Of a stretch of 64,000 nt of DNA, positions 47,320 through 64,000 are shown piece after piece. The notes beneath the pieces are model-generated. The model ran no database searches and was not told where the DNA came from. It saw nothing but the letters and a program-made list of their open reading frames with translations. The translations under genes were made by a program, and so were the position numbers. Each line of letters begins with the position of its first letter. Positions within the stretch are counted from its first letter, which is position 1. The DNA comes from Candidatus Falkowbacteria bacterium (lineage in GTDB: Bacteria > Patescibacteriota > Patescibacteriia > Patescibacteriales > UBA12075), in assembly GCA_003514005.1 (NCBI GenBank), contig DOSJ01000022.1, positions 13,804 through 77,803 on the forward strand. Reading direction: 5' to 3'.

Positions 47320-47335
47320 TTTTTTGTTTATTGCT

Positions 47336-48214: not shown

Positions 48215-48223
48215 GCTTCCTCC

Positions 48224-48676: not shown

Positions 48677-48714
48677 ATTCGCTCCTTTGTCATTTAGATA
48701 ATTTATTTTAATTT

Positions 48715-50755: not shown

Positions 50756-50939
50756 ATTCTCCTTTATAATTTTGTTTTTCTTATATTATTTAAAGATCCA
50801 GACCTCAAACAAAACCGCTTAAGGCCAAAAATTTTTCTCTAAAGTTATTTAGGGAAAAGTTTTTTAAGAAAATACGAGAAAGGTTTAATAGTTTTTTTAT
50901 TAAACCTTTCTCGTTAATATTTTTTTCGATTTTCAATTA

Positions 50940-51698
50940 CTAATACTTAAAACTAAAAACATCTTCTGAGGTTGTAAATTTTGCTCCGGCTTTTGCCATT
51001 CGTGCCAATGCCTTTATGCCAAACCCCATATCCACGTTACCTTCAAAATCAATATTTACCTCCTCAATTGCATCCGTAACAACATATACATCAAAATCAA
51101 GATTATATTTTTTCTTGATTGCCAGCATCGCAAGTACAGCCGCAAGAACGCAATAGTCGGTCGCAAAACCGTAAACAATCATTATTCTAAGACCCTGTTC
51201 AACAAACATCTTGAAAGCCATTTCAAAATTCGGATTTGTCGCAACATCATATGTTTGTTTTTCAAAAATCAATTGCATTCCAGAGTTAATAAACATCTGT
51301 ATTTCTGCCATCGTATAAATCCGTGTGCCAAGCAAGGGACCTTCTTTTGACTTGATATAAATATCTTTTTGAGGTTCAAGAAAATCAAGCCTCAATTGCC
51401 CTTTGGTTCCATTCATTGCATGATCAATAAACGAGCCGCCTTTATTTCTGATCAATTCAGCATCTTCGTAAAAATGCCGATCAACAGAACCAAATATTGA
51501 CCAACCATTTGCCTGAGCAAACTCATGTATACTACAAATTATCGGAAGAACGGCTTCAGCGCCGTAATATCCCGGCTTTTTTACTTTTTGTCCATAAACA
51601 AAAAGTTCACCATTTCTAAATGAAAAACATCCTTGCACATCTGTTTCGTATGCCCCAATATGAAAAATTGCCATTTTTTTTCCTTTCATTTTTGTCAA
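50940..51698 (-). CDS. isochorismatase-family hydrolase (nicotinamidase-like)
   Basis: Catalytic-region pattern MIVYGFATDYCVLAAVLA with conserved Cys. NAD-salvage neighbourhood. Confidence 0.6.
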   Translation of the reverse strand: MTKMKGKKMAIFHIGAYETDVQGCFSFRNGELFVYGQKVKKPGYYGAEAVLPIICSIHEFAQANGWSIFGSVDRHFYEDAELIRNKGGSFIDHAMNGTKGQLRLDFLEPQKDIYIKSKEGPLLGTRIYTMAEIQMFINSGMQLIFEKQTYDVATNPNFEMAFKMFVEQGLRIMIVYGFATDYCVLAAVLAMLAIKKKYNLDFDVYVVTDAIEEVNIDFEGNVDMGFGIKALARMAKAGAKFTTSEDVFSFKY

Positions 51699-51704
51699 AA
51701 CACG

Positions 51705-52331
51705 TTAACTTTTCCACTCATACCCTTTCCACCCATACAATTTATCCCAAACAATAACGCGAGCCACATCCTCGCATACCATATCACAGAAGCTTTCATC
51801 ACCGGCTTTTATCCGTCTCCGAATTTCCGTACTAGAGCCGAATATTCCTTCTAGTGGCAGGTAGACACTACCAAAAGGTAAATCATCAGGTTCATATTCT
51901 TTGCACGGACGTCCGCCGACTAAAAAATGCAATTGATTGTAGTCGGTTTCTTTTCTCGCCCAATGCTTGTGAATATACGAACTTCCTTTTGCGCCGCCGG
52001 CAATAATTTCTGCTCCGACAAAATGAAGAACTTTGCCCTGTTTAGAATATATATCACCCAAAACATGCGTTGGTCGGAAACAATTTTTTTCCAAATCATA
52101 CACATCAATCTCTATAAGGCCGTCTTCTTCCAGCTGTCCGAACGCGCTGTAAACCATTTCAATGCGTTGGTCTAAAGTGGTTCCTTGACTGGGCTTATCC
52201 TTTCTCGGTCCGCAAGGAACTACAATGATCCGCGCGTTGTTAAAACGATTGCAAATCCGCTCAAGTACTTGAACGTGGTGATTCCCCGGCGGATCGAATG
52301 AACCGCCAACTAAAATTATTCCTTGTAACAT
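51705..52331 (-). CDS. NMN/NaMN adenylyltransferase-like cytidylyltransferase
   Basis: N-terminal GGSFDPPGNHH (GxFxPxHxxH) motif. Confidence 0.6.
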   Translation of the reverse strand: MLQGIILVGGSFDPPGNHHVQVLERICNRFNNARIIVVPCGPRKDKPSQGTTLDQRIEMVYSAFGQLEEDGLIEIDVYDLEKNCFRPTHVLGDIYSKQGKVLHFVGAEIIAGGAKGSSYIHKHWARKETDYNQLHFLVGGRPCKEYEPDDLPFGSVYLPLEGIFGSSTEIRRRIKAGDESFCDMVCEDVARVIVWDKLYGWKGYEWKS

Positions 52332-52357
52332 ATCAAACCTCCCTATTCAATTTAATT

Positions 52358-53422
52358 TCACAGTCCAAGACTGTCGCAAAAATCCGAAGCCGTTTTCTCA
52401 ACTTCTTCCCTGTTCCATAATCCATCCAAAAGATATTTGGGAATTATCTTGGTGCCATTGTATGCGCCGAGCAAAGACCCGACCATCGCGCCGTTCGTAT
52501 CCGTATCGCCACCGGCATTTATCGTCTCAAAAAGCGTTTCAATACTGTATGAATTCCGCAAAAACATAGCATAGGTAAAAGGCAACGAATTATATACATA
52601 GCAAGTTGCGCCGTCGGTTGCAGACAATAACTCATCAACGGTCATTTTCATATAAGCATCATCCTGAAAAAGATTTTTAAAGCGCTCACTAAGCTTATCG
52701 ATCATGCCATCGTTTATTAAATAAGCCTCTCCTTTTTCTGCGGCATTTATAACCATTGCAGTAAAATAATTATTCACAGAGCCAAGGTCTAAATATGTAT
52801 CAAAACAAGTAAGAACAGCTCCGACTTGCGCAAAACCGGAGGCAATACCCATGCGCGTACAATGAGTCATTTGAGCGATTTCTGCAATGCAATCTAAATA
52901 TATATCTTCGCGTTTAGAAACAAATTCTTTATACTCACAATATTCCAGACTTTTAGCCGCATTTTCTATTTCTTCTGCGAATACAGCTCCCACCGGTGCG
53001 ATTTTCATGGAGATGCCGTTACCCGCGCCTGTCGGATTACCCATCTCAGAAATATTACAATTCGGATAAACACCTTTAATCCTTTTTAATGATTCAATCG
53101 TGCTTCCACCCCAACCGGCAGTGCTTCGTTCCATTTCTTTGACATGTTCAAGAAAAACATGTTCGATAGTAAATGATTTTTCGATAATATACGCCCGTGC
53201 GATTGCTAAAGTTAATTGCGTGTCATCCGTCCATTGTCCTTTCACAAAACCTTTGCACCATTTATGGTCCGGACGCGCAGGCAGATAGTCCCGGATATAA
53301 CCGAAAGGTTCTTGAATTTCTTTTTTGGTTAATACTTCAACCGGCATACCTAGGGCATCGCCGATTGCTCCCAGCAAAAACATCGCCATAATCTTGTCGC
53401 GCATAATTTCTTTATGCTCCAT
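52358..53422 (-). CDS. ADP-ribosylglycohydrolase family protein
   Basis: N-terminal GAIGDALGMPVE motif and length typical of DraG/ARH-type enzymes. Confidence 0.8.
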   Translation of the reverse strand: MEHKEIMRDKIMAMFLLGAIGDALGMPVEVLTKKEIQEPFGYIRDYLPARPDHKWCKGFVKGQWTDDTQLTLAIARAYIIEKSFTIEHVFLEHVKEMERSTAGWGGSTIESLKRIKGVYPNCNISEMGNPTGAGNGISMKIAPVGAVFAEEIENAAKSLEYCEYKEFVSKREDIYLDCIAEIAQMTHCTRMGIASGFAQVGAVLTCFDTYLDLGSVNNYFTAMVINAAEKGEAYLINDGMIDKLSERFKNLFQDDAYMKMTVDELLSATDGATCYVYNSLPFTYAMFLRNSYSIETLFETINAGGDTDTNGAMVGSLLGAYNGTKIIPKYLLDGLWNREEVEKTASDFCDSLGL

Positions 53423-53710
53423 TGCCTCCTCCTTTTTAGCTTATTGTTTTTATCAAAGATCAATGCCCGAAAAAACTTTTTCAGACAATAATTAATGATA
53501 AAAATCCTTTTAAATTAGCATAATTCTATTATTTTGTCAAGATTGCAATATTTACTTAGTGTATATATAACACTATATTATACTTATTTTATTTTCTTGT
53601 CAAGAAAAAAGAAACTCATTATTATTTTTACTAATATTAAATATTTTTTGTAAATAAAAACTCTATAACCTTTTTTAGGAGGTTATAGAGTTAATGGGGT
53701 TAATTGGTTT

Positions 53711-55807
53711 TTAATTATCCACCGGTTTACATTCATAAAAAATAATTTCATCATCACCACAAATTTCAATATATTGGTAGATGAAAAAATATTTTTTATT
53801 ATTTAAAAGAACAACTGTGTCCCTGGAGTAATGGTCCAAGACATCTGCCTGATTCCCGGTTTGTCGAAGCTGTATTATTAAACACTCGACTGGGTTTAAA
53901 TAACGAAAGATTCGCGTTCTAGCTAATTCTCTTTTATTCTCCACAAGACAAACTCTGACAACTCCTTTAACAAATTCAACAACCGGCTTAGCGTAAGCGT
54001 TTTGCAATTCAGAAAATGACAGTATTTTAAGAACACCGGACGCGGCATACTTCAAAAAAATTTGGTAATCTGAATGTTTTACGGAACTGCGTAAAATCTC
54101 GCCCCAGCTTAAATCTTCGTAACCCTCCCCCTCTTTTCCAAATACGGTTTTTTGATTAAAAACATCTGACTCAGGAAAAATTTTTCTAATACCCGGATTA
54201 CTGGAAGCGATTCCTATGACATCGGACATTCCCGGCATCATTGCAAAATGCATCTTCATTTCATCTGCTGTACGATAAAAAGGTGTAAGAAAAATACTAA
54301 AATGATTCAATGTAAATCCCTTATCAAAGAGCGACTGTGCTACCATTTTTGCTACCAACCATTTTGGAATCGGATCCCTGTCGGTCAAGGTATAGCTTCG
54401 TTGGATTGATATTGCTACATGATAACCGATATTGATTAATCGAGAAATATACTCGATATGACCACGATGCGGAATGCCCATTCTTGCGGGAAATAGCAAT
54501 GAATTAATTTTTTTCTCGCAAACTATTTTTCTTGTTGATGGTTTTGATTTTGTTAATGAGCTATCCGTTTTTAATGTCTGGATAATTTCATAAATTGTCG
54601 GGCGCTCTTTTGGGTTTTTTGCCAACATTCTCGCTATCAACATAATTCGCTTATCACTATTTGCATTTAATTTTTTTTCCTCAAAAGAAAGAGAAACGAT
54701 CGGCCAAAAATATTTTAGTATTTCACTTTCCCGATTATCAGTTTCCTGAATATTCGGATTTACCATAAACGGGTGTTCACCGGTCAACAGTTCATAGAAA
54801 ATCATACCTAATTGAAAGACGTCAGAAGCATAGCTTGCTCTCAGACATCTGCCTTCTTCCGGTGAACCATAACGCGGACTAGCTAAATATACATCAGCTT
54901 TATTCCCATCAGTTATGCGCGATACGCCAAAATCAATCAATTCAATTTCGTCTTCACCACAAATACAATGCTCGGGCTTTAAATCGTGATACAAAATGCA
55001 GGCTTCGTGCATTTCTTTTATTTTCTCTGCAATTTTCAAAATTTGCGCGCTGGCTTCATCAAACGAAACGCAATCGCCTTTGGTTATTTTCTCAGAAAGT
55101 GGTTGTCCAAACTTGTAGGCTGTTTTTAAAAAAATTATCCCCTGGCCAATATCCACCTTGCCATAATACCCATGCGCGTATCCGCGGTCAGATAACTCTT
55201 CATAAATTTCATCTTCATTGTTAAAGAATTTTCCAAGACGACTCTGCTTATAATCAATCATCTCCTTAAATATTTTTACAATTCCATCTGAATCAAACAC
55301 CAGATAAACAAAACTGGAACGACGAATTTCGTTTACACCACTTTGAATTTTTCTTAAAATCTTAATGCCGTTTTTTTTGCAGTATTCACGAAACAAATTA
55401 TCAATATTCGGCTGTAACAATTTTATTTTTCTCTTTGCCAATATGCTTACTTCCCACATATCATATTCAGAAAAAATCAAATCAGAAACATCTTCTTTTT
55501 CTCCAATTTTCATCAACATTTTAACTGCAGGAATGTTTTTATAAAGCTTAACTAGTCGAAATAATTCAATTAAAGCATTGTAATTTTTTGCTTTTTGAAA
55601 ATATTGAATGGCATATATAGCATTTTCAGCATCAAGATTAAAACATGCCATGTGCGCTTCGGCCAACAGATTAAATGCGATATTTTTTTCTTCTTTGGCA
55701 AATTTAATTCTACGAAATGCGTTACGCAAATTAACAAGCGATAATGCGTTTTCAGAGCTTAAAGCTTTGACAATAATTTTTTCCATTGCCACCTTCTTAT
55801 TAATCAT
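53711..55807 (-). CDS. Ser/Thr protein kinase fused to C-terminal NMNAT-like nucleotidyltransferase domain
   Basis: Kinase catalytic loop YHDLKPEH and DFG (LIDFGVS). C-terminal LLFPARMGIPHRGHIEYI...DPIPKW matches the archaeal-type NMNAT/cytidylyltransferase HxGH signature. Confidence 0.65.
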   Translation of the reverse strand: MINKKVAMEKIIVKALSSENALSLVNLRNAFRRIKFAKEEKNIAFNLLAEAHMACFNLDAENAIYAIQYFQKAKNYNALIELFRLVKLYKNIPAVKMLMKIGEKEDVSDLIFSEYDMWEVSILAKRKIKLLQPNIDNLFREYCKKNGIKILRKIQSGVNEIRRSSFVYLVFDSDGIVKIFKEMIDYKQSRLGKFFNNEDEIYEELSDRGYAHGYYGKVDIGQGIIFLKTAYKFGQPLSEKITKGDCVSFDEASAQILKIAEKIKEMHEACILYHDLKPEHCICGEDEIELIDFGVSRITDGNKADVYLASPRYGSPEEGRCLRASYASDVFQLGMIFYELLTGEHPFMVNPNIQETDNRESEILKYFWPIVSLSFEEKKLNANSDKRIMLIARMLAKNPKERPTIYEIIQTLKTDSSLTKSKPSTRKIVCEKKINSLLFPARMGIPHRGHIEYISRLINIGYHVAISIQRSYTLTDRDPIPKWLVAKMVAQSLFDKGFTLNHFSIFLTPFYRTADEMKMHFAMMPGMSDVIGIASSNPGIRKIFPESDVFNQKTVFGKEGEGYEDLSWGEILRSSVKHSDYQIFLKYAASGVLKILSFSELQNAYAKPVVEFVKGVVRVCLVENKRELARTRIFRYLNPVECLIIQLRQTGNQADVLDHYSRDTVVLLNNKKYFFIYQYIEICGDDEIIFYECKPVDN

Positions 55808-55884
55808 TTACTCACCTCCTCTCATTTAAAAAAAATGGCTCCAACTTAACGTAGGAGCCATTACTAATTTTCAAGAACATACTG

Positions 55885-56943
55885 TCATACGAAGATTTTA
55901 TCCATCATCCGATCTTTTTCTTCTTCAGAAATATCCAAATATTTTGCAAATCGTTTTATAGCTGCACGGGCGTTTATATCTGTATTCTCACCAAAAACCG
56001 GGTCGCTAAGCCATTTTTCATACAGCGAGCTTAAAAATAACTCTACTGCTTGCAGGCCGCGATGTCTGGCAACCAGAAATAAAATAGCATTGGCAACAAT
56101 TCCAAGCCGATGTCTATGTTCTCTGATTCCTGAAAGATCAATAAAATCAAATGCAACCTTATCAGGAGAAAGAAACTGCTTTTGTAATTCACCGACTTTT
56201 GGTAAATCACCGCAACCAACAACTTCAAAGGTTGTAAATGTTTCCATTACCTTTTTCACTGAATCACGCCAATTGCGTTGATTTGGACAACCGTTATCCG
56301 AATCCATTCCCATACCGTGCGCAACAACATCGCTGACAAGGTAAAGATGCTTTTCGGTAACATCTCCAAAATCAATATTACAGACATCCCACAATACACA
56401 TTCAATGGCTTCAGCGGCATCACCACCATCGGCTGGAAAAATATTTTTTACAGTTGAAAAAAGTATTTTATCGCCGGTTTTATCCGGAGAAATAAAATCT
56501 ACAACTTGTGAAATTCTAATTCCATCGCAATGGTCCGAAAAATAATTAAAAGCAAACTGGGATTCGGGATCAATTACATTTAATACCGCTGACAAATAAC
56601 CGGATCCCTCTCTTAAATTCGCGGCAATTGCTTTATTCGAGCCGGAGTTATCAATCAAGATAATATGCACACGCCTTATTCCTTTTGCCGGATGAGTAAA
56701 GCCAAGCTTAACCAGATTTTCATCATAAAGTTCCTCGGTTTTTCTTTCTTCTCTGGCTTTTTTTTCTCCTGTTGTTGCGCGAGCATTCCGAATTCTTTCG
56801 GCATAATCATCATCGGCCTTCTTCCTTGTTCCTTCATCTGAGGAATGCCTTTTTGATGAACTTCTAAAACTACTGCTATAACTTTCATATGTATTTCCCG
56901 ACATCTTCTTGTCTCCTTTTTCTGAAAAAAAATTGAGGGGCAA
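55885..56943 (-). CDS. von Willebrand factor A (TerY-like) domain protein
   Basis: MIDAS DNSGS (DxSxS), Ser-rich low-complexity N-terminus, additional C-terminal helical region. Confidence 0.65.
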   Translation of the reverse strand: MPLNFFSEKGDKKMSGNTYESYSSSFRSSSKRHSSDEGTRKKADDDYAERIRNARATTGEKKAREERKTEELYDENLVKLGFTHPAKGIRRVHIILIDNSGSNKAIAANLREGSGYLSAVLNVIDPESQFAFNYFSDHCDGIRISQVVDFISPDKTGDKILFSTVKNIFPADGGDAAEAIECVLWDVCNIDFGDVTEKHLYLVSDVVAHGMGMDSDNGCPNQRNWRDSVKKVMETFTTFEVVGCGDLPKVGELQKQFLSPDKVAFDFIDLSGIREHRHRLGIVANAILFLVARHRGLQAVELFLSSLYEKWLSDPVFGENTDINARAAIKRFAKYLDISEEEKDRMMDKIFV

Positions 56944-56975
56944 ATTGGTTTTGCCCCTCGAGGTTAAGGTTGATA

Positions 56976-58196
56976 TTAGAACTTTTCGAATTTGTCTTTG
57001 GATCTTACTTTCCCGCTAATGAGCGTATCCCAGGGAATGGATATGCCGAGCTGAAGCATTGCACCAAGGTACGCATATTCGGATTGACCGGAAGAAATAT
57101 TCTGATATTCCATCACGGAAAGAATATATTTTGTCACATTTCTTTCCAGTCTAACATAGTCAGCAGACACGTTTGTTTTCAGCATCTTCAGCATCTGCTC
57201 ACGATTGGCTGCGCCGAGCATACTCGGCAACCTGTCATCGGCAAGAATCTTTTTGATTTCCTGGGCATCATACGCCAGCGCACGGGCAACCGGAATTCCG
57301 GTACCAGCAAAAACGCGATTAATATTGTTAATCACTCCTTCGGCTGCGTCTCTCAAACCGGACGTATCCGGGGGTTGAAGCATACCCGGGGGCATACCAG
57401 AATTTCGACCGGACATCGCCATGGTAAACATCGTTGCCATCATTCCGGGGTTGGATGCACCGGACATCCATTGCTCCTGCCATCCTTTGACCAGGGTATT
57501 GAATGAAGAGATCGATTCCCAAAAACCGGATTCAAGTTTGTTCAGTAATTCGTCTTTCCGCTTTGCACTCATCCTGATCGTTCCTTCAATATCAAGAGCT
57601 TTTAAAATATCAGCATAGGCACGTTTGGAAATAATTTTCTGAATTTCATAATACGCGGGCGGACATGGTTCATCAAGGCCTTCGGCATATTTTTCCATGG
57701 CTTCAATTATTTTATCGGGTAGATCATACAGACCGACACGATTTGCCAAGGCCGCACGTGTTGCGGACATCACTTCGGTTTTTCCGATCTTAAGTTCTCC
57801 ACCCGTTTTTAACAGAACCAAAAAGCTGTCATCATCCGGAATCTGCGGAAGAACATCTGTCGCCACTCCGGTTCCAAAAGTTTCAGTTGGTGCAACAAGT
57901 GCCGAATCATTAATGGCCGGCTTCGGACCACGTAAAAGACTGACATTTTTCTTGAATACTGCACTCGGAATCTTGAGGAGGATGTCCATCTCCGCTTTAA
58001 TTTCTTCATCTGTGGCGGAGGCCGGGTCAGACAAAAGAGCAAGCGCGTCTTCGCTCGGTATGCCAACAACATTTGCAAGCGCGTTTACAATCACTTCTGT
58101 TGTCGCAGCTGTTTTTACAGAAAACTCTGCCATTCTTTTTTCCCATTCAATCTGCCATTCGGGCTTTTCTATTGGTGTTGCTGTTACATCTGCCAT
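56976..58196 (-). CDS. hypothetical protein (Ala/Gly/Met-rich)
   Basis: 406-aa ORF in the same transcription direction inside the kinase/vWA cluster. Confidence 0.3.
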   Translation of the reverse strand: MADVTATPIEKPEWQIEWEKRMAEFSVKTAATTEVIVNALANVVGIPSEDALALLSDPASATDEEIKAEMDILLKIPSAVFKKNVSLLRGPKPAINDSALVAPTETFGTGVATDVLPQIPDDDSFLVLLKTGGELKIGKTEVMSATRAALANRVGLYDLPDKIIEAMEKYAEGLDEPCPPAYYEIQKIISKRAYADILKALDIEGTIRMSAKRKDELLNKLESGFWESISSFNTLVKGWQEQWMSGASNPGMMATMFTMAMSGRNSGMPPGMLQPPDTSGLRDAAEGVINNINRVFAGTGIPVARALAYDAQEIKKILADDRLPSMLGAANREQMLKMLKTNVSADYVRLERNVTKYILSVMEYQNISSGQSEYAYLGAMLQLGISIPWDTLISGKVRSKDKFEKF

Positions 58197-58260
58197 GTTT
58201 TTTCTCCTTTTGTAGGGGTTTTATTTTTCAATGTCCAATTCTCAAAAAAAATCAAGAATC

Positions 58261-58300
58261 AGATTACACTAACTTAATTTTACGATTTTGTCAAGCTACA
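58261..58300 (-). promoter_or_regulatory. putative sigma70-like promoter with extended -35 CTTGACAAAAT
   Basis: Reverse complement reads CTTGACA-17nt-TAGTGT upstream of the 406-aa gene. The same CTTGACAAAAT motif recurs upstream of other minus-strand genes. Confidence 0.35.
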
Positions 58301-59684
58301 TCCAGACCTTGTCTTCATGGGTTGGCCCAAAAGATGCAATGCTGACGGGTATACTTGTTTTTTCTTCAATATAGGCTAAAAAACTTTTTACTTCCTTTTG
58401 TACTTTGCTTATTTTATTTATTTTACCATTTACAGTCCAGCCCTTAAATATTTTCCAGCTTGCTGGTCGGCACTGCTTAAGCAAATTTGCCAATACTTCG
58501 CCCCCCTCCTTTCCGATATGCTTGATTCTTGAAATAAGCACTTTTCCGTTTGTCTTTCTTTCAAAATCAAAATACTTTTCCAGATCATTTCTTTTTTCAC
58601 CGCAATATTCATAGGCAGTAACAATTTTCACCTGATTTAACCCTGATAATCGATCAACGCATGTAATAGCTAATGAATCAATTTTTCCAGATACTTCAAG
58701 CGCATATTTTGTAGTAACAAGATCAAACCAACCGATTCTAAATTTTCCTTGCCATTCATTACTGCTATTGTGCAAATCAGGAATTAAAGACGACAATCTT
58801 TTGTTCTCTGTAACAAACGGGCCATTGCCATGTCTAGTGGCATACGCTCGCAGAATACCTATTATTTTTGCTTGCGACAAACCGATTATTTCTTTTGCGT
58901 TTTGCGGAGTTGTACATGAATAAGTGTTGTATGGTGCAAAACCATATTTTTCATCAAGCAACACTCCCTGCGCTCCTTCAAAAATTACGGGACCTAGCGT
59001 ATCGCGCATAACATCTGCTGTTTTGCGAATATTCAAGCGATGATCAACAAACATTTTTTCATAAGCCGTTGCCAATAACTCAACATAATTTCTGGTGCTT
59101 AACTTATTAAAAATATTTGTAATTTTTTCATCTGCACCGTCAGCGATTAGCGGTTCAGCTTGGTCTATTTTATAGCGCCAAAGATAATCCAGTTTTTTTC
59201 TTAATTCATCGGGATAAAAAATATCCTGCAAAATAATTCCAACACCATTCCGTCCATCACGCACTGCTTCGCCAACACCCAATCCGCAACTGCCATGCCG
59301 ATTTTTTCCACGAGCAATTTCCCGCATCTGATTCATGTGTATTTGAAATGGAGTAATTAGCCGACAATTCGAATCAATGCTCAGCATGGAATATGGATCT
59401 TGAATGCTATTAGTTTCCAATACTTCTGCTTCCACCTCTAGATGCAATAGATTGATCAACATATGCGCGGAAAGGTGTGTATTCGCTCCGGCAAAAATTC
59501 CTGAACCGAATTGAGAACATTTATGATGCCGTCCTCCCGGCTCTACAATATTATGTACTGCTTGATTTGCTCCAGTATAGCGGATAACTGTTTCAGCTTT
59601 ATATTCACGGGCAAGAAAATCAACAATTGATCCCTTGCCCTGATCGCCAAGTCCTAGATCAACTGTAATGATATTCTCTGTCAT
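58296..59684 (-). CDS. adenylosuccinate synthetase (PurA) family paralog
   Basis: N-terminal GDQGKGSIVD (PurA GDEGKGKIVD) and RAYATRHGNGPFVTEN (PurA RAYTTRVGxGPFPTE). The NAGHT region diverges to NQAVHN. Confidence 0.75.
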   Translation of the reverse strand: MTENIITVDLGLGDQGKGSIVDFLAREYKAETVIRYTGANQAVHNIVEPGGRHHKCSQFGSGIFAGANTHLSAHMLINLLHLEVEAEVLETNSIQDPYSMLSIDSNCRLITPFQIHMNQMREIARGKNRHGSCGLGVGEAVRDGRNGVGIILQDIFYPDELRKKLDYLWRYKIDQAEPLIADGADEKITNIFNKLSTRNYVELLATAYEKMFVDHRLNIRKTADVMRDTLGPVIFEGAQGVLLDEKYGFAPYNTYSCTTPQNAKEIIGLSQAKIIGILRAYATRHGNGPFVTENKRLSSLIPDLHNSSNEWQGKFRIGWFDLVTTKYALEVSGKIDSLAITCVDRLSGLNQVKIVTAYEYCGEKRNDLEKYFDFERKTNGKVLISRIKHIGKEGGEVLANLLKQCRPASWKIFKGWTVNGKINKISKVQKEVKSFLAYIEEKTSIPVSIASFGPTHEDKVWM

Positions 59685-59714
59685 TATTCCTCCATTTTAT
59701 TGACTGTTAAACGT

Positions 59715-60626
59715 CTATTCTGTTAGATAGGCTTGGAAAAAATCCATTGCCATTCCAAATGCTTCTTTGTTAGCGCATATTCCATCACTTAGCATAAAAT
59801 TCTTATACCCAAACAATTCCATCAAATACACATCTTCAAGATCTGCCAGGGAAATGGAATCGGAATGCGTTAGTGATTCAAGCAATCTTGAAGCAACAAT
59901 TGCATTCGTGTCAATTTTGATAATTGTTTTTAACGCATCAATAATGTTTTTACTCTTTTGCATTTCAAGAACCAAATCATCTCGAGCCGCTACAATTGAT
60001 ACATCAAATCCATATTCAGCAAAATCAGGACTGCCAATAAAATTAATCCCAGGTAAAGATTCAATTTTAATATGCGCCTTGGCTTTTGGGTCTATATCAT
60101 ATACATCATCGATATCCTGACCGCACTCAACATAAGACAACATGTAATCATGGATTCCTAGTTTACGCGAAGCCTGGATGTACTCTTCATCAAGCCGGGT
60201 TAAATATTTCCCCTTTATTTTCAGATTATTCCCAATAACATTTGCCGCTTGTCCGGCACCTGTCGCATATTGCGGATTTGTTTGAGTAAAAACTTTACTT
60301 CCCTTGATTTCTGCAATGACCAAGGGGTTATTTTCTCCTCGCAACCAAAGCTGTGCCGGTAAATCTACTTCGATTTTACGATTCAGAACAATCGCACCGT
60401 GGAGTGGATTCGACCATCGATTAACGCGCAATTGCCGTCCTTTCAAATCTATATACAGCCTTTTACCATCCATAAGTCTTTGCAGTTGCTCTAGATTTTC
60501 AAAAGGACTGCAGGATGTTTTTCCATGCGACCCGGTATTGAAACGCGCTTCAGCAACCAAAGGATGCTTGGCAACATTATAACAATTTTCATTTACCGGA
60601 GGCGGGATCGTTGCAATAATTTTCAT
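59715..60626 (-). CDS. pyruvate-kinase-like TIM-barrel (PEP/pyruvate-binding) domain protein
   Basis: N-terminal KIIATIPPP resembles PK K(T)KIVCTIGP. IVAARDDLVLEM resembles PK MVARGDLGIE. Only barrel-sized (303 aa). Confidence 0.3.
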   Translation of the reverse strand: MKIIATIPPPVNENCYNVAKHPLVAEARFNTGSHGKTSCSPFENLEQLQRLMDGKRLYIDLKGRQLRVNRWSNPLHGAIVLNRKIEVDLPAQLWLRGENNPLVIAEIKGSKVFTQTNPQYATGAGQAANVIGNNLKIKGKYLTRLDEEYIQASRKLGIHDYMLSYVECGQDIDDVYDIDPKAKAHIKIESLPGINFIGSPDFAEYGFDVSIVAARDDLVLEMQKSKNIIDALKTIIKIDTNAIVASRLLESLTHSDSISLADLEDVYLMELFGYKNFMLSDGICANKEAFGMAMDFFQAYLTE

Positions 60627-60694
60627 GCCAATCTCCTTTTTTTGAAAAAAGGGAGAGGAAATTCTTACCTCCTCTCCCTTCTGAATTTTACCTT

Positions 60695-62176
60695 TTACTT
60701 CTTTTTCTTTTTGGGCAATTTTGCCGCATCCAATTTTACTGCTTTTGACCCGACCAAAGAAAGTCTTTCCAAGGCACCCCTCACTCCTGTGCGTCGAGCA
60801 TCAGACTGTTCACGGCTTTCAAGGTCTTTGTCATATTCATCAATTGTTCGTCGTTCTTCGGTAATTGCAATCGCGCCGAGCATTAGATCGCCAATCGCTT
60901 TAGGTTCTTTTGTAACCAGAATATTTTCTTCGGGCAAAACCGTCCGCCACTGGTCAAGTATCTTGTCGTCATTATAGGCCGCATAAGGATCGGATGGAAT
61001 TTCCACCTGTTTTTTTACCCGCGGATCATAATCAAAGTCAAAGCAAATCACATCACTTTCACGTCCGGTTGTATTTTTCGCTATTGTGCCTTCAAATTGT
61101 TGGTATTCACCATCAATTTCCAGCTCAACTTTAAAAGGAATTTCTCCTCTCTTGGTTTCCGGATCATGGTAGGCAAAATTACGAACAAATACCTGATATC
61201 GGCCTTTCTGCGCTTTGCCTTTTGGCCAACGAGTATTTTCCACAGCTTTCCTGGTTTGGCAACCACCAGCATTGGTATCAACATCCAATTCTCCGCCACA
61301 TCTTGAGCGTTTGCTGCTAAAATATATTTCTTCACCCGCTGGAGTAAACACATGAAGATCTAGGTCGTCACAAGTATCCCACATCAACGATGCCCGCACG
61401 CTAACACCGACAAACATTCCACCTCTTTCTTGCAGACGTTTTCTTATCTCGGCATCAATCCCTTCTTTTCTTTTTTTCGCATCTTTCAGGATGTAGATAA
61501 AGAAAACATGGTACTTTTCCTGAACCTCGGCAAAAATCTTTTCCGAAGGAATATCTTCTTTAACATCAACCCCATAAATCTGCTTGATTTCAGATTTTGT
61601 CACAACAGGATAAAAACCTTCGTCACCAAGAATGAATAAATATCCCTTTTTTCCTCGTGCATTGCAATCAAGATGTGAATAACGCGCATAACCAAACAAT
61701 GCCGTTGCGTATGACTCTACTCCGTTGCCACCACCGCCTTCTTCAATGTTTAATTCCGTCTTTAAATTTCGATCAATTTTGAGGTCTGATTCAAAATCTC
61801 CAATTTGTACAGGAAACCGATCATATTGATAATCACCAACACCGCATATGCTTACTTGTGGATCATCTGCATAATTCCTCATTACTATTTGACCAAACAG
61901 TAATGGTATTTTATCATATGCGTCCAAAACGTCTTCTCCACGTGTTAATGTCAGATCAGACATAATTACAATTGGCGTGATACGATCAGATACTCCTGGC
62001 ACTTCTCGACATTCCCAACCATTGCGCATAGCTTTTTTAGGATCAAGATGTTTACTTATTCGTTTTTCTTTCAAAATCTCTGGCTTAATATCTTTTGAAA
62101 AATTAAAATCACTCCGCGTTGATCTTGAATTTGGAACAACATCCCTATCAAAACCTCTTCCACTTGGTCCGCCCAT
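60695..62176 (-). CDS. vWA-like (DxTxT MIDAS variant) plus TerD-like domain fusion protein
   Basis: Central IVIMSDLTLTRGED MIDAS-like motif. C-terminal LMWDTCDDLDLHVF...EIYFSS...GGELDVDTNAGG parallels the TerD LGWD...DFDLDASAFLL...FIFYNN...GDNRTGEGDGDDE calcium-binding signature. Confidence 0.45.
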   Translation of the reverse strand: MGGPSGRGFDRDVVPNSRSTRSDFNFSKDIKPEILKEKRISKHLDPKKAMRNGWECREVPGVSDRITPIVIMSDLTLTRGEDVLDAYDKIPLLFGQIVMRNYADDPQVSICGVGDYQYDRFPVQIGDFESDLKIDRNLKTELNIEEGGGGNGVESYATALFGYARYSHLDCNARGKKGYLFILGDEGFYPVVTKSEIKQIYGVDVKEDIPSEKIFAEVQEKYHVFFIYILKDAKKRKEGIDAEIRKRLQERGGMFVGVSVRASLMWDTCDDLDLHVFTPAGEEIYFSSKRSRCGGELDVDTNAGGCQTRKAVENTRWPKGKAQKGRYQVFVRNFAYHDPETKRGEIPFKVELEIDGEYQQFEGTIAKNTTGRESDVICFDFDYDPRVKKQVEIPSDPYAAYNDDKILDQWRTVLPEENILVTKEPKAIGDLMLGAIAITEERRTIDEYDKDLESREQSDARRTGVRGALERLSLVGSKAVKLDAAKLPKKKKK

Positions 62177-62178
62177 AA

Positions 62179-62295
62179 TTATTCTCCTTCCTCTTTTTTA
62201 ATTTCCTGGTTTAATTCTTTTGTCACTTCTTCCGTTAATATTTCAATTAATGTTTCAATTACATCTCTTGAATACTCATCTGGTGGTTGGCCCAT
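62179..62295 (-). CDS. small acidic ORF (38 aa) translationally coupled to the vWA-TerD gene
   Basis: MGQPPDEYSRDVIETLIEILTEEVTKELNQEIKKEEGE. Its GGAGAATAATTATG end supplies the RBS and overlapping start of the downstream gene. Confidence 0.25.
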   Translation of the reverse strand: MGQPPDEYSRDVIETLIEILTEEVTKELNQEIKKEEGE

Positions 62296-62334
62296 AACAC
62301 ACTCCTTTGTTTATATAATTTCTTTATATCAGCG

Positions 62335-63516
62335 TTATTTATTATACATAGAAAACTTTAAAAACTTTCTTTTCCCCCAAAGATCTTCGACAAGCTCAAT
62401 TAATTCACCATGAGTTTTCCAGGCATCACTGACTCTTTGCCACTTACTTTCCATAACAAATGCCTTGAGAAAGTTTTGTATTCTTGGGTCAACACTATCC
62501 GGCATTTCATTTGTTTCCGGATTACCACCCAAAATGTAAATCATTAACTTGCCGATTGCAAACAAATCTGATGACGGCAATATTTTATCACCGGTTTTTA
62601 GTTCCGATGGATAAAAATATTCGTCTTTATCGCCAACAAACTCTAACCCCGAATTAACATGCGCATTCAATATCGCTTGATCCCAATTTGTAAAAACCAG
62701 ATTATGATCACGCGGTCGAATTATAACATTTTGCGGATTCAGATTCCGGTGGATAGTATTTCGTGAATGGGCGTAACCAATCCCGCTTAAGGCTCGATTA
62801 AGCATCCAAACCATATGCTTTTCCGGAATGCCGTTTTTCCACTTCTCTGAATCTTTCACTTCTTCAAGACTATAAAAATCCGCATGGTATTCCATAACCA
62901 AGCCCAGCCTTCCGTCCGACATCTTAAATGTCTTATTTTCAGGCGGGTAATGCTTTACTTGGCTTTTCTGTTCCTCGGACAATATTCGCAATACTCTGAT
63001 TTCATTTTCAAGATAACGATTGTTTTCTTTTTTGCTGGCAATTTTCGCAATAACTTTTTTACCATATTTACCATTTATCAGAATGCTTCCCGCGTAAACC
63101 TCAGCTGTTTCTGTATCCAGTAAATATTTTCTCAGTTCGATTTCATCGCCACCAATATTAATACGAAAATCCGAACTTAAATCAGATCCATAATCTCCGG
63201 TTTCGATTCTTTCAATTCCTTCATTAAATAATCGATAAAGCATTTGTATTGCCTCTTCGCTGTATACATCGGAATATTTACCGGAAAAAATACTTGGATC
63301 ACATTTTCTCTTCCATTCTTTTAATACTCGCGACAAAGCCTCCTTTTCTTCGGCGCTTGTTTCGGCAACTCGTTCACCATCATCATCGTCATTGATAAAT
63401 AATTTTTTGCCAAAGACATCTTCTGGAAAAACCGCACTTGCAATAAGTCTATGTATTTCCAGCAGCTTAGGCTCAACATCAATCATTTCCATTTTCTTCT
63501 CCTTTATATTATTCAA
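62335..63516 (-). CDS. protein-kinase-like protein, probable pseudokinase
   Basis: Catalytic loop HRNLNPQN (HRD Asp replaced by Asn), DFG replaced by TNWDQA. VAIK-like VIAKIASK present. Confidence 0.5.
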   Translation of the reverse strand: MNNIKEKKMEMIDVEPKLLEIHRLIASAVFPEDVFGKKLFINDDDDGERVAETSAEEKEALSRVLKEWKRKCDPSIFSGKYSDVYSEEAIQMLYRLFNEGIERIETGDYGSDLSSDFRINIGGDEIELRKYLLDTETAEVYAGSILINGKYGKKVIAKIASKKENNRYLENEIRVLRILSEEQKSQVKHYPPENKTFKMSDGRLGLVMEYHADFYSLEEVKDSEKWKNGIPEKHMVWMLNRALSGIGYAHSRNTIHRNLNPQNVIIRPRDHNLVFTNWDQAILNAHVNSGLEFVGDKDEYFYPSELKTGDKILPSSDLFAIGKLMIYILGGNPETNEMPDSVDPRIQNFLKAFVMESKWQRVSDAWKTHGELIELVEDLWGKRKFLKFSMYNK

Positions 63517-63685
63517 TTGTAAAGATCAATTAAATTTTTACAATCTGTATTTATTTATATAAACACAAAATAATAAAAATTTTCCTATTTTAATTTCAAA
63601 AATTAGCAGAATTTAATACAAATGTCAAGTTTCGACATAATTTCTTTATTTGTGTAAAAACAACACTATCAAAACCCAAAAATTT

Positions 63686-64000
63686 TTACAATATCTCCAC
63701 ATTCACAACCCCTTCATGCTTCGCCGTACAAACGTTTGCCGGACGATGCGCCTGCCCTGTTGTCTTTTTGTCCAATTTTTTTACCAAATCCAGCGCCAAA
63801 ATCTTTTTTTGAAAATTTCTTTTATCAAGCTTTTCACCGCGAATTATTTCATAGGCTGTTTGCAGTTCATTCATGGTAAACTCTTTGCTCAGCAATTGGA
63901 AAACAATATTCGTATATTCAAGTTTGGCTGACAGGCGGCTAACCGCGGTTTTTACGATTTTCTCATGGTCATAGGCCAAAACCGGCAAATCTTTTACATC
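63686..64000 (-). CDS. NrtR-like (Nudix-related) transcriptional regulator, C-terminal part; N-terminus beyond window
   Basis: C-terminal wHTH-like segment FTMNELQTAYEIIRGEKLDKRNFQKKI resembles the NrtR DNA-binding domain. Confidence 0.4.
   Translation of the reverse strand, partial: DVKDLPVLAYDHEKIVKTAVSRLSAKLEYTNIVFQLLSKEFTMNELQTAYEIIRGEKLDKRNFQKKILALDLVKKLDKKTTGQAHRPANVCTAKHEGVVNVEIL

Follow-up and report, generated by a model that had tools for sequence, protein, structure and literature searches.

A conserved core of a pseudokinase (K2), a vWA-DUF2135 protein (P6) and an adenylosuccinate-synthetase (AdSS) paralog, here called the PurA paralog, lies next to NAD-salvage genes in a contig of Candidatus Falkowbacteria, a CPR bacterium. 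The trio is widely conserved and apparently unstudied; no paper describing a pseudokinase/vWA/PurA-paralog module was found in the literature. The reading preferred here, tentatively and with a probability of about 0.35, is that of an NrtR-controlled module of the purine/NAD pool running non-canonical AdSS chemistry, which would extend the NAD-salvage regulon in this CPR bacterium.

Gene organization of the locus

In the window (the whole 64,000-nucleotide stretch that was analysed), seven consecutive ORFs of 303-698 aa occupy positions 53711-63516 of the minus strand. They are regarded as genes rather than chance ORFs because conserved homologues exist for all seven. The main features are as follows:

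50940-53422, minus strand: three NAD-salvage genes adjoining the cluster
50940-51698, minus strand: isochorismatase/PncA-like gene of this group
51705-52331, minus strand: NMNAT/NadD-like gene of this group
52358-53422, minus strand: ADP-ribosylglycohydrolase (ARH) gene of this group
53557-53575, unstranded: perfect palindrome TAGTGT-N7-ACACTA upstream of the ARH-NMNAT-PncA genes
53659-53692, minus strand: terminator-like hairpin 3' of K1
53711-55807, minus strand: K1, Ser/Thr-kinase-like (Pfam Pkinase 3.6e-27)
55885-56943, minus strand: P2, second MIDAS vWA protein with a helical C-terminal part (model pLDDT 90.2; Foldseek vWA matches)
56935-56959, minus strand: terminator-like hairpin between P3 and P2 (10 pairs, 6 GC, then a T-run)
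56976-58196, minus strand: P3, conserved 400-aa protein with no recognisable domain
58296-59684, minus strand: PurA paralog (Pfam Adenylsucc_synt 5e-71)
59715-60626, minus strand: mini pyruvate-kinase-like (mini-PK) TIM barrel (PF00224, 29.4 bits for the single sequence against a cutoff of 30)
60695-62176, minus strand: P6, with N-terminal MGG(G) tail, MIDAS vWA domain, DUF2135/YfaP domain and helical tail
62179-62295, minus strand: 38-aa ORF
62335-63516, minus strand: K2, protein-kinase-like (Pfam Pkinase 1.4e-12)
63650-63668, unstranded: candidate NrtR operator upstream of K2 (TAGTGT-N7-ACACTA, one mismatch)
63686-64000, minus strand: 3' part of an NrtR-type regulator gene (NUDIX and WHD_NrtR), the rest lying beyond the window end

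Eight genes had been counted in the preliminary description. The seven long ORFs lie where it placed them, and the eighth may be the 38-aa ORF, which begins MGQPPDEYSRDV and is a gene call in the JGI copy of the contig (L002). This ORF occurs in this lineage only, and its start is similar to the N-terminal tail of P6. The earlier inventory holds for two kinase-like proteins (K1 and K2), two vWA proteins, the PurA paralog and the PK-like barrel, but not for a TerD domain or an NMNAT domain on the kinase. The reported proximity to NAD-salvage genes and an NrtR-like regulator is confirmed. The 3' end of the regulator gene appears in the ORF list as 63686-63988; the gene at 5325-5999 of L001, with PF00293, PF19368 and PF21906, maps to the window from 63686 onwards. 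Translation of K2 is likely to start at M9 (63492), and that of P2 at M14 (56904), giving 339 aa.

Conservation of the core in bacteria and phages

Synteny was evaluated in 57 loci, each representing a species and encoding a full-length P6 homologue, from Patescibacteria, Myxococcota, Leptospiraceae, Acidobacteriota, Melainabacteria, Bdellovibrionales and Gammaproteobacteria. The order pseudokinase, vWA-DUF2135 protein, mini-PK (where present) and PurA paralog is co-linear in 28 of the 44 testable species loci. K2 lies immediately upstream of P6 in 41/52 loci, and the PurA paralog was found inside the P6 flank in 40/47. The module proteins share 43-47% identity across phyla, with a mean column identity of 54%. 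In one locus (L058), P6 and the PurA paralog are fused into a protein of 956 aa that keeps the MGGG start; as a single MAG example, this could reflect a lost stop codon. The unit of conservation is K2-P6-[PK]-PurA-like, with or without P3. Co-conservation holds for this core, and not for the eight genes as one block. One copy of the module has genes for a Schlafen-like ATPase and SIR2 nearby.

The vWA and PurA-paralog pair is also adjacent in three unrelated phage groups: lytic mycobacteriophages, of which more than 200 have it, Vibrio phages and Rhizobium phages. A phage orthologue of the pseudokinase was confirmed in Mycobacterium Bixzunavirus only (gp253; K2 HMM match 5.8e-60). Phage NAD-reconstitution pathways are an established form of counter-defence, and the module might likewise have originated in phages, repairing pools hit by host immunity, for instance by clearing deaminase-made IMP/ITP/dITP or by supporting NAD reconstitution, with the bacterial copies domesticated or prophage-borne. 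The three phage lineages, the matches to phrog_2971, phrog_1735 and phrog_1211, and the NMNAT/Nudix and PRTase genes some 3 kb upstream of the Rhizobium phage copy agree with such an origin; the last of these also suits the preferred NAD reading. We nevertheless consider it very improbable: searches of IMG/VR with family patterns did not recover the full-length vWA-DUF2135 form, which is chromosomal in many phyla, beside housekeeping genes, and the genes of the window are cellular throughout, with no phage structural genes seen.

Residue signature of the PurA paralog

The PurA paralog was correctly recognised in the preliminary description, and all sources name it "adenylosuccinate synthase". 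It nevertheless falls below the NCBIfam equivalog cutoffs, with 210 bits against 402 for PurA and 41 against 300 for PurZ. Across 45 sequences, D13, K16, H41 and D333 are kept in 45/45 and Q224 in 44/45. Other positions have changed: N38Q and V273H (each 45/45), T128S (43/45), T129C (40/45), T300W (38/45), T301Q (43/45) and R305F (35/45); R303 is deleted in 45/45 and R143 is unconserved. The phage orthologues have the same signature. From the structural literature on E. coli AdSS, we take R303, T300 and T301 to be residues of the aspartate pocket, and N38, T129 and R143 to be contacts of the IMP phosphate. This pattern points to an intact catalytic core with remodelled aspartate and IMP-phosphate pockets. 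General inspection of the flanks revealed no obvious adenylosuccinate lyase, and the product of the paralog need not be an AMP precursor.

CPR genomes are reduced and salvage-dependent, a setting in which the gene could simply be a divergent housekeeping AdSS whose neighbours are functionally unrelated and form no system. The common name and the strong Pfam match would suit this explanation, to which we give little credence. The shortfall from the equivalog cutoff and the conservation of the substitutions across phyla and phages speak against it, as do the synteny with K2 and P6 in most loci and the single fusion. The family is, moreover, present in Leptospiraceae, Myxococcota, Melainabacteria and the 9.5-Mb genome of Ca. 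Uabimicrobium, all of which presumably have full purine pathways.

The vWA-DUF2135 protein and the pseudokinase

Two proteins, P2 and P6, had been described as vWA proteins. The vWA fold is upheld for both by structure prediction only, with MIDAS residues invariant in each family; no Pfam, NCBIfam or PADLOC model was passed by either. In P6, the vWA domain covers approximately residues 55-250 and is followed by a beta-sandwich at approximately residues 255-385. This second domain had been taken as TerD-like, an assignment that was rejected: PF02342 matched 0/25 members of the P6 family at E<=1, and hhalign gave a probability of 0.18% with Klebsiella TerD against 97.2% (E 3.8e-11) with E. coli YfaP, identifying a DUF2135/YfaP domain instead.

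In K2, HRN replaces HRD (family consensus HGN) and NW replaces DFG (NW or DW in the family). The catalytic Asp is present in 0/39 orthologues, while the beta3 Lys is kept in 35/39 and the alphaC Glu in 37/39, in agreement with the earlier view of this protein as a pseudokinase.

The N-terminus of P6 reads MGGG in 89/120 sequences and MG in 116/120; the tail is disordered in the structure model and is also conserved in the vWA-only proteins of phages. Such a tail fits another explanation, in which the AdSS paralog would be a conjugating enzyme or modified-nucleotide synthase that couples the C6 of an activated purine nucleotide to an amine other than aspartate. In its boldest form, this explanation takes the amine from P6 itself: once Met is removed, the invariant N-terminal Gly would expose a free alpha-amino group. 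The product would be an N6-(protein)-AMP adduct or a new N6-substituted adenine/NAD-like nucleotide, which in CPR loci could be elaborated by the PRK-like kinase, mini-PK and NMNAT. Loss of the aspartate-side-chain pocket beside intact catalytic residues, the altered IMP-phosphate contacts, the tight adjacency of the genes, the fusion that retains the MGGG start, and the nearby P-loop PRK-family kinase, PK-like enzyme and NMNAT are all in its favour. It is, however, drawn from sequence only, and we know of no AdSS-family enzyme that acts on a protein amine. P6 homologues that lack a PurA paralog within 10 kb (Nannocystis, for example) retain the MGGG tail too, and the tail may just as well serve the kinase-like protein as a docking or regulatory motif. 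On balance, this explanation seems unlikely.

Candidate NrtR operators and the proposed function

The palindrome upstream of K2 is a candidate NrtR operator, from which we infer control of the operon by NrtR. Three sites with at most one mismatch were found in the window, against 0.06 expected by chance. The perfect palindrome upstream of the ARH-NMNAT-PncA genes abuts the -10 hexamer of a promoter-like site, sharing one base with it; the palindrome upstream of K2 sits upstream of the best promoter-like match, not over it. In 1.26 Mb of loci, AGTGT-N7-ACACT occurs 22 times, always in intergenic regions, and the sites precede NrtR, ARH, PncA, PncB, NadE-NadD, UK-like->K2 and P3->K2. In low-GC loci it was counted 9 times, against a mean of 0.56 over all such palindromes. 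Other CPR loci have equivalent palindromes in front of K2, P3 or UK-like genes, and in two Saccharibacteria loci (L030, L035) the palindrome separates NrtR from the divergently oriented P3-K2-P6-PurA genes. In CPR bacteria the core operon is located inside NAD-salvage/NAD-biosynthesis operons, flanked by NadE-NadD, PncA, PncB, a PRK-family kinase and ARH. Judged by sequence, this common candidate operator strengthens the link with NAD salvage and NrtR. Outside CPR, the neighbours of the triad are unrelated and variable and include no NrtR or NAD genes; thus, the NAD link may be lineage-specific.

In the preferred reading, that of an NrtR-controlled purine/NAD-pool module, the core would be a three-protein unit that converts purine nucleotides. 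On a hypoxanthine- or guanine-type nucleotide, the PurA paralog would phosphorylate the 6-oxo group at the expense of an NTP, probably GTP, and would then pass the activated C6 to an amine other than free L-aspartate. The MIDAS vWA/DUF2135 protein would act in a complex with the paralog, whether as obligate partner, scaffold or regulator, and K2, a kinase fold without the catalytic Asp, would be a nucleotide-binding regulator rather than a phosphotransferase. Where present, mini-PK may regenerate the NTP from PEP; P3 would be a further accessory, and P2 with K1 a second, lineage-specific vWA/kinase pair. The operon and the NAD-salvage genes would be de-repressed together as ADP-ribose, a breakdown product of NAD, accumulates, and the task of the operon would be to restore or adjust the adenine-nucleotide/NAD pool. 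Large lytic phages may carry a reduced version (vWA-only protein and paralog, with or without the pseudokinase) for the same task in the infected cell. Why a metabolic enzyme should need a vWA protein and a pseudokinase lies outside what this explanation accounts for.

Comparison with Ter-associated and defence systems

The cluster resembles TerY-P in its pairing of vWA proteins with Ser/Thr kinases and differs from it in having no PP2C; none was found in the 21-kb locus, as had been noted before. PADLOC gave no match to TerY-P or any other vWA model. With no TerD domain either, a Ter-type defence cluster was rejected, and the suggestion of a new anti-phage system gained no support.

A conflict system of the general vWA and kinase type, comparable to TerY-P or to the ARG-centric NrtR/vWA systems, is quite unlikely. 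The vWA protein would sense a phage or an ADP-ribosylated target, and the PurA paralog would be a nucleotide-depleting or signal-making effector. Neighbourhoods of an NrtR-type regulator, ARG and vWA have been predicted to counter viral ADP-ribosylation (PMC9503650), which would suit this explanation. The kinases match PADLOC kinase models such as PD-T4-6, MkoA and mad6, matches that represent generic Pkinase similarity, and PADLOC matched neither of the vWA proteins, nor the PurA paralog, the PK-like protein or P3. Neighbours that differ between genomes, as in mobile modules, and the Schlafen-like ATPase and SIR2 neighbours would also suit defence. Defence genes are usually fast-evolving, however, and the strong conservation across phyla, the presence of the pair in lytic phages and the placement of the CPR operon within NAD-biosynthesis operons point the other way.

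Accessory and lineage-specific genes

Mini-PK has a reduced B domain and no C-terminal allosteric domain. The single sequence falls just short of the Pfam cutoff, but the family profile matches pyruvate kinases of solved structure at 2.3e-13. In 16 aligned members, the positions corresponding to conserved pyruvate-kinase motifs (VRYN, DLKGRQLR, KIES, AARDDL) are invariant; the earlier assignment as a PK-like barrel is retained. The gene was found in 15/47 loci. P3, which gave no match in Pfam, PHROG, PDB or phage searches, is an accessory to the core operon across several phyla, present in 12 loci and mostly immediately upstream of K2.

K1 has a helical N-terminal region, the kinase motifs YHDLKPEH and DFG, and a 270-aa C-terminal domain. 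An NMNAT-like domain had been proposed for this kinase, and the proposal was not borne out: there was no Pfam match at E<=1 and no PDB sequence match, and hhalign gave 0.4%. Resemblance of K1 to the NMNAT family is limited to the motifs PHRGH and SWGEILR. The P2 family, with 121 members and the invariant residues D85/S87/S89/D162/D192, occurs in Patescibacteria only and K1 is confined to Falkowbacteria-type loci; the P2 and K1 pair is a lineage-restricted add-on to the core.

Gene organization and genomic context

A preliminary description had counted eight consecutive minus-strand genes at 53711-63516. The region holds seven consecutive long open reading frames (ORFs), plus a 38-aa ORF at 62179-62295.

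Genes of the cluster (window coordinates, strand, length and assignment)
53711-55807, minus, 698 aa: K1, kinase-like protein
55885-56943, minus, 352 aa (339 aa from the probable start M14): P2, vWA-fold protein
56976-58196, minus, 406 aa: P3, protein without recognisable domain
58296-59684, minus, 462 aa: PurA-like gene, paralog of adenylosuccinate synthetase (AdSS)
59715-60626, minus, 303 aa: PK-like gene, pyruvate-kinase-like barrel (mini-PK)
60695-62176, minus, 493 aa: P6, vWA-fold protein
62179-62295, minus, 38 aa: micro-ORF, stopping 2 nt ahead of the P6 start codon
62335-63516, minus, 393 aa: K2, kinase-like protein

The micro-ORF begins with MGQPPDEYSRDV, which is similar to the conserved N-terminal tail of P6 (MGGGxYxxDV); it could act as a decoy or regulator peptide, or be left over from a duplication of the P6 5' end. 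A conserved micro-ORF between K2 and P6 was considered and rejected, as the 38-aa ORF is restricted to this lineage.

Domain matches on both sides bear out the earlier observation that the cluster adjoins NAD-salvage genes and an NrtR-like regulator. Directly downstream are genes for an ADP-ribosylglycohydrolase (ARH), an NMNAT/NadD-like protein, a PncA-like isochorismatase, an aldehyde:ferredoxin oxidoreductase, a Nampt-like protein, NAD kinase and an NH3-type NAD synthase. Immediately upstream of K2, a gene that leaves the window end encodes an NrtR-type regulator (PF00293 Nudix, PF19368 and PF21906 WHD_NrtR). The downstream NAD-metabolism genes, from the NAD synthase to the ARH, make up an island of about 11 kb on the minus strand (window 42145-53422), which also contains a xylose-isomerase-like TIM barrel and a 292-aa domainless protein recurrent beside NAD genes in other CPR loci. 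The oxidoreductase, of the tungsten type (48995-50755), is an odd insert in the middle of this island. Elsewhere in the window, cellular genes such as a P-type ATPase, DsbD-like, HlyD and FtsX were found. A phage or prophage origin was rejected, given zero nucleotide matches to phage records, cellular genes throughout and a contig from a Falkowbacteria MAG; the window is bacterial chromosome. Exact protein matches locate the sequence on contig DMOD01000009.1 (assembly GCA_003453605.1), and in public records the proteins are assigned to Candidatus Falkowbacteria, within CPR/Patescibacteria.

Structure of the vWA proteins

The cluster had been described as containing a TerY-like vWA protein and a fusion of vWA with a TerD-like domain. 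For P6, an AlphaFold model from an alignment of 25 sequences (pLDDT 80.7) matched integrin beta I-domains, ArnB and SpaC at about 5e-8 in Foldseek, and the P2 model (pLDDT 90.2) matched SpaC, TFIIH Ssl1/p34, CMG2 and integrin I-domains. In the family alignments, the MIDAS residues of P6 (D74-x-T76-x-S78, the GGGG(T/N)G loop at 147-152 and D185) vary little or not at all, and those of P2 (D85-N-S87-G-S89, G160-x-D162 and D192) are invariant. By these model matches and MIDAS residues, P2 and P6 are vWA proteins at the fold level. These features do not establish kinship with TerY in particular: the vWA models (PF00092, PF13519 and relatives) gave no match at E<=0.01 for P2 or P6 and none at E<=1 in 25 P6 relatives, and neither protein matched any Pfam, NCBIfam or PADLOC model. 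Sequence-profile searches of the PDB with P6, P2 and P3 found nothing. P2 as a sequence paralog of the P6 vWA domain was also rejected (hhalign 0.2%), the two being kin at the fold level alone.

The second domain of P6 is not TerD. The TerD model PF02342, like the vWA models, was not reached by P6, with no match in 25 P6-family members at E<=1, and Klebsiella TerD (a query checked as 100% identical to annotated terD) gave a probability of 0.18% in hhalign against the P6-family profile. E. coli YfaP (DUF2135), on the other hand, was aligned to the beta-sandwich with 97.2% probability (E 3.8e-11, 36% identity over 69 columns). PF09906 appeared below threshold in 8 of 25 family members, with a best value of 0.0069, and one P6 homologue is named "YfaP family protein" at NCBI. 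This DUF2135-type beta-sandwich is a mobile module. It is repeated up to 12 times in giant proteins of 2,400-2,500 aa (P0382, P0414, P0457). Phage hypothetical proteins contain it as well, in Ackermannviridae-like phages of Salmonella, Klebsiella and Escherichia, in phiCbK-like phages of Caulobacter and in phages of Bacillus.

P6 is unusually conserved: sequences from different phyla are 43-47% identical, and column identity averages 54%. Its N-terminus reads MGGG in 89 and MG in 116 of 120 homologues, followed by an aromatic residue and Asp; the model shows this segment as disordered. In the three phage vWA-only proteins compared, the first residues are MGSGAW, MGGATW and MGGGRF. The N-terminus of P2 (window ~56860-56904) has a small-residue/Tyr consensus, MSGxSYxxY, that recalls the MGGGxYxxD of P6; possibly each vWA protein offers its N-terminal tail to the kinase-like protein beside it.

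Kinase-like proteins

The presence of two kinase-like proteins was confirmed, as both K1 (3.6e-27) and K2 match Pkinase of Pfam. K1 retains HD...DFG, and K2 has HRN for HRD and NW for DFG. The proposal that K2 is a probable pseudokinase extends to its family: the catalytic Asp is absent in all 39 orthologues, most of which have H-G-N, and the catalytic-loop Asn is replaced by His in 31 of 39. The orthologues retain the beta3 Lys (35/39), alphaC Glu (37/39) and APE Glu (39/39). These residues mark K2 as a conserved pseudokinase, or else as an atypical enzyme.

An NMNAT-like domain had also been assigned to K1. Three negatives leave this identity of its C-terminal domain unsupported: no Pfam match at E<=1, PF01467 included; no PDB sequence match; and 0.4% in hhalign against the NMNAT family. 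Likeness to that family is limited to the motifs 'PHRGH' and 'SWGEILR'.

The AdSS paralog and the mini-PK

The PurA-like protein passes the family-level Pfam model (240 bits, 5e-71), and its description as a PurA paralog is upheld by its scores below the curated cutoffs of both PurA and PurZ. It falls short of the PurA equivalogs NF002223 (210.1 bits vs 402) and TIGR00184 (194.4 vs 395.55) and of the PurZ model NF038379 (41.1 bits vs 300), the PurZ match being limited to the N-terminal 135 residues. phrog_1211 matches the paralog, and the same PHROG covers generic mycobacteriophage PurA-like proteins.

The active site was compared by aligning 45 paralogs to E. coli PurA. The P-loop G12-D13-x-G-K16-G, H41, Q224, T239, R306 and D333 are invariant or nearly so, with D13, K16, H41, Q224 and D333 (E. 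coli numbering) kept in 44-45 of the 45. Among these, D13, H41 and Q224 presumably serve phosphoryl transfer to O6 of IMP, and D333 is taken here as the guanine-specifying residue. The aspartate loop 'TTGRRRR' has become 'WQG-xFR' (T300W in 38, T301Q in 43 and R305F in 35 of 45), and R303 is deleted in every paralog; T300, T301, R303 and the R305 loop are, we assume from E. coli AdSS, the L-aspartate-binding elements. Changes are also seen at N38, T129 and R143 of the other subunit, which together with T239 we take to be the contacts of the IMP 5'-phosphate: N38 is Gln in 45/45, 'GTT' (T128, T129) has become 'GSC' with T129C in 40/45, and R143 is not conserved. V273 is replaced by His throughout. 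The kept catalytic residues and the changed aspartate and phosphate residues point to a paralog that would retain the activation chemistry and use a different amine donor, perhaps with a different 5' substituent. That the gene is an ordinary purA, as its family-level score might suggest, is improbable next to these substitutions and the curated cutoffs. If the substrate pocket is read correctly, it indicates a reaction other than the textbook one; if the core trio of K2, P6 and the paralog is a functional unit, the name "adenylosuccinate synthase" on the relatives examined hides an enzyme subfamily.

The best-supported reading, with a probability of about 0.35, is a purine-nucleotide-converting unit around this non-canonical AdSS, deployed during NAD breakdown. 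The AdSS would be coupled physically to the vWA/DUF2135 protein P6 and controlled by the pseudokinase, the mini-PK would regenerate NTP, and the whole would act while NAD is being broken down. We know of no precedent in purine metabolism for obligatory-looking MIDAS vWA and dead-kinase partners.

The main rival makes the paralog a new purine-C6 transferase, which would activate IMP, or a dinucleotide containing hypoxanthine, with GTP and couple it to a non-aspartate amine, under pseudokinase control, across phyla and large phages. The altered aspartate loop is consistent with such chemistry, but we regard the reading as rather unlikely. A candidate amine is the invariant N-terminal Gly of the vWA partner, the product then being a protein-N6-adenylate adduct; against this acceptor, P6 homologues retain MGGG even where no PurA paralog is nearby. 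A new N6-modified adenine or NAD-like nucleotide would be the alternative product. The function of the module possibly bears on a new nucleotide or protein modification.

The NTP-regenerating part of the nucleotide-converting unit would fall to the mini-PK. As a single sequence it stays just below PF00224 (29.4 bits vs cutoff 30) and far below TIGR01064 (32 vs 306); a 16-sequence family profile matches solved pyruvate kinases, including E. coli PykF at 2.3e-13, so the PK-like barrel of the preliminary description holds. The motifs VRYN, DLKGRQLR, KIES and AARDDL align with conserved PK motifs, and R28, N30, D60, K187, E189, D216/D217 and S246 (window numbering) are invariant in 16/16 aligned sequences; these are presumably the phosphoenolpyruvate-, metal- and phosphate-site residues of the PK family. 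The protein, at 303 aa, is without the C-terminal domain and most of the lid (B domain).

Conservation of the core trio and its phage copies

A scan of the P6 family, with one genome per species, gave at least 540 relatives, of which 80 loci were kept with 10-kb flanks; neighbours were identified by tblastn and phmmer with all window proteins and then clustered. K2 is directly upstream of P6 in 41 of the 52 loci with room for it (57 of the 80 kept loci have a full-length P6). Among the matches listed, the PurA paralog is within the flank in 40/47 loci, the PK-like gene occurs in 15/47, and the co-linear order K2-P6-[PK]-PurA is found in 28/44. Co-conservation of the cluster therefore stands for this core and not for P2 and K1, which among the matches listed are confined to loci of the Falkowbacteria type; the P2 family numbers about 121, all of its named members being from Patescibacteria. 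P3 is present in 12 loci, ahead of K2 in most, and ARH in a minority of triad loci, again among the matches listed. P3 has no relatives in Pfam, PHROG, PDB or phages.

The triad was found in Patescibacteria, Myxococcota, Leptospiraceae, Acidobacteriota, Melainabacteria, Bdellovibrionales, Gammaproteobacteria and others. It was also seen in Pfam-annotated contigs of a Ca. Uabimicrobium relative and of a 4.7-Mb genome, flanked by unrelated housekeeping genes. As an impression from the match list, hosts (loci L003-L063) look enriched for predatory, epibiotic or large-genome social bacteria, such as Myxococcota, Bdellovibrionales, Melainabacteria/Obscuribacter, the Ca. Uabimicrobium relative and CPR episymbionts, as well as Leptospiraceae. 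In a Bdellovibrionales MAG (L058, 7677-10547), a single 956-aa ORF joins the P6 vWA-DUF2135 protein, a linker of about 35 aa and the PurA paralog; this is either a genuine Rosetta-stone fusion or a stop codon lost in a single MAG. The N-terminal extensions of myxobacterial PurA-like ORFs were rejected as informative fusions, being without domains and probably over-long ORFs in high-GC DNA.

In some lineages a small HExxH M41-like protein joins the triad. It is a stand-alone FtsH-type M41 metalloprotease domain of 171-205 aa with an intact HExxH, directly upstream of the pseudokinase.

Copies of the M41 gene (locus, coordinates, lineage)
L024, 1281-1817: Spirochaetota
L054, 5046-5660: Syntrophaceae
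L089, 6296-6811: another lineage

In the last of these, a distant locus, a divergent SpoIIE/PP2C-TPR gene adjoins the M41 gene.

A vWA-only homologue is directly upstream of a PurA-like gene in three unrelated phage groups. In Mycobacterium Bixzunavirus, QBert gp254 (vWA-only) and gp255 (PurA-like) are preceded by the kinase gp253, which matches the K2 HMM at 5.8e-60. Vibrio phage Va1 carries the same pair, and in Rhizobium phage RHph_TM3_3_6 NMNAT/Nudix and PRTase genes precede the pair by about 3 kb. The phage PurA-like proteins belong to the same paralog family, since they carry GSCG, TRHG and (W/H/F)QG like the bacterial paralogs. At E<=1e-30 the P6 profile matched 1103 clusters (50% identity) in a set of 1.8 billion representatives, and many of these are the short form with vWA only; full-length P6 was not found in IMG/VR, where the search gave only DUF2135-domain relatives. 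The module thus spans CPR symbionts, bacteria that are predatory or have large genomes, and over 200 sequenced mycobacteriophages, a reach by which its function would bear on phage takeover of host nucleotide pools and on NAD homeostasis in minimal cells. The Bixzunavirus gp253-255 copy offers a tractable system with good genetics.

The anti-phage role proposed earlier finds no positive support in this distribution. The triad proteins are strongly conserved, the same vWA and PurA-paralog pair is carried by lytic phages, and the CPR operon is embedded in NAD-biosynthesis operons; on these grounds a defence system is improbable. The converse, that the module is a phage-derived counter-defence, has the phage copies in its favour and is similarly improbable, the full-length vWA-DUF2135 form being chromosomal in many phyla, beside housekeeping genes.

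Related Met/Gly-rich proteins are encoded just upstream of the vWA and PurA-like pair in two unrelated phages, at L085 5222-5935 (Vibrio phage Va1, unannotated) and L086 4738-5568 (Rhizobium phage EVB96_016). P3 likewise contains a Met-rich segment of low complexity, but no kinship with these proteins is seen in hhalign.

Candidate NrtR regulation

A perfect TAGTGT-N7-ACACTA palindrome is located upstream of the NrtR gene, just beyond the window, and further copies are found inside it; the chance expectation in the window is 0.06. The candidate operator sequence is TAGTGTTATATATACACTA, as distinct from the variant upstream of K2.

Operator-like palindromes (window coordinates)
53557-53575: perfect, overlapping by one base the -10 hexamer of a promoter-like site ahead of ARH
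63650-63668: one mismatch, upstream of K2
51852-51870: TAGTGGCAGGTAGACACTA, one mismatch, inside the NMNAT coding sequence

Either chance or an internal regulatory role accounts for the copy in the NMNAT coding sequence. The core AGTGT-N7-ACACT occurs at 22 sites, all intergenic, in 14 fetched loci. These sites are upstream of NrtR, ARH, PncA, PncB and a NadE-NadD fusion, and also upstream of a PRK-family kinase followed by K2, of P3 followed by K2, or of K2 itself. In low-GC loci the core was counted 9 times against a mean of 0.56, and it is the sole non-homopolymeric half-site among the most frequent such palindromes. In two Saccharibacteria loci (L030, L035), NrtR is divergent from P3-K2-P6-PurA, with the palindrome between them.

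From these sites we infer that the CPR K2-P6-PurA operon probably belongs to the NrtR regulon. Genes under NrtR are de-repressed by ADP-ribose, and de-repression of the operon by ADP-ribose would follow from such membership. The candidate operator is also a concrete regulatory prediction for uncultured organisms. Terminator-like hairpins after P3 (56935-56959) and K1 (53659-53692) fit K2-P6-PK-PurA-P3 and P2-K1 as putative separate units.

Comparison with known systems

The Ter/TerY-P frame of the preliminary description fails its defining tests. The cluster resembles TerY-P in the placement of a cytoplasmic MIDAS vWA gene beside a eukaryotic-type kinase-fold gene, which is seen twice in the window (P6/K2 and P2/K1). 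Unlike Ter systems, however, the cluster has no PP2C, TerD, TerZ, TerC or similar gene, PADLOC gives generic kinase similarity alone, and the core kinase partner K2 is without the catalytic Asp family-wide. The absence of a PP2C phosphatase had been recognised already, and gene calls across the 21-kb locus L001 include no member of the PP2C/SpoIIE family. To our knowledge, no Ter system has an AdSS paralog as an integral member.

PurZ clusters carry DatZ, MazZ and DpoZ. The paralog shares with PurA and PurZ the common fold and P-loop and the conserved Asp13, His41, Gln224 and Asp333, and phages carry it, as they do the PurA paralog PurZ. It differs from PurA in having WQG-xFR for TTGRRR, His for V273 and GSC for GTT and in the loss of R143, from PurZ in its vWA and pseudokinase partners, and from both in its scores (210 vs 402 bits and 41 vs 300).

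Archaeal ArnB is controlled by adjacent protein kinases (ArnC/ArnD). It was the second-best Foldseek match of P6 (8s05_B; 5.3e-8), over 451 columns and most of P6, with a global TM-score of 0.20-0.25. Both are cytoplasmic vWA proteins with a beta-sandwich, and the 8s05 entry calls the complex an ortholog of the Sec23/24 core motif. P6, in contrast, has no FHA partner, and its DUF2135-type sandwich, MGGG tail and AdSS paralog are without Arn counterparts.

As in described NrtR regulons, the NrtR gene adjoins PncA, PncB, NadD, NadE, Nampt-like and NAD kinase genes and shares an upstream palindrome; the predicted regulon here differs in that it would include the pseudokinase-vWA-AdSS-paralog operon. 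We know of no such operon among described NrtR targets.

The nearest published idea is that of the ARG-centric neighbourhoods of Iyer, Burroughs and Aravind, in which an NrtR-type regulator (Nudix-wHTH) is encoded along with an ADP-ribosylglycohydrolase and a vWA protein and regulation by ADP-ribose is predicted (PMC9503650). These NrtR/WYL-regulated systems are predicted to reverse viral ADP-ribosylation (PMC9503650, section 3.8). The window likewise has an NrtR-type regulator, ARH and vWA together, but none of the rhodanese-type or other phosphatase, REase or ARPP was seen here; adenylosuccinate synthetase, pyruvate kinase and YfaP are absent from PMC9503650. No functional description of this gene combination was found in the literature covered, which leaves out most subscription journals, so that this absence is not proof.

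Other features of the window

Riboswitches and other RNAs were looked for, and the sole RNA found is a tRNA-Trp at 27040-27111. On the minus strand at 5300-10340, a DNA helicase (phrog_62), a 457-aa protein without matches and a 558-aa DNA methyltransferase are consecutive and may form a restriction-modification or other DNA-targeting system. On the plus strand at 33186-36962, an HMA-DsbD_2-cupredoxin fusion is followed by a heavy-metal P-type ATPase, and the two look like a copper/metal homeostasis pair.
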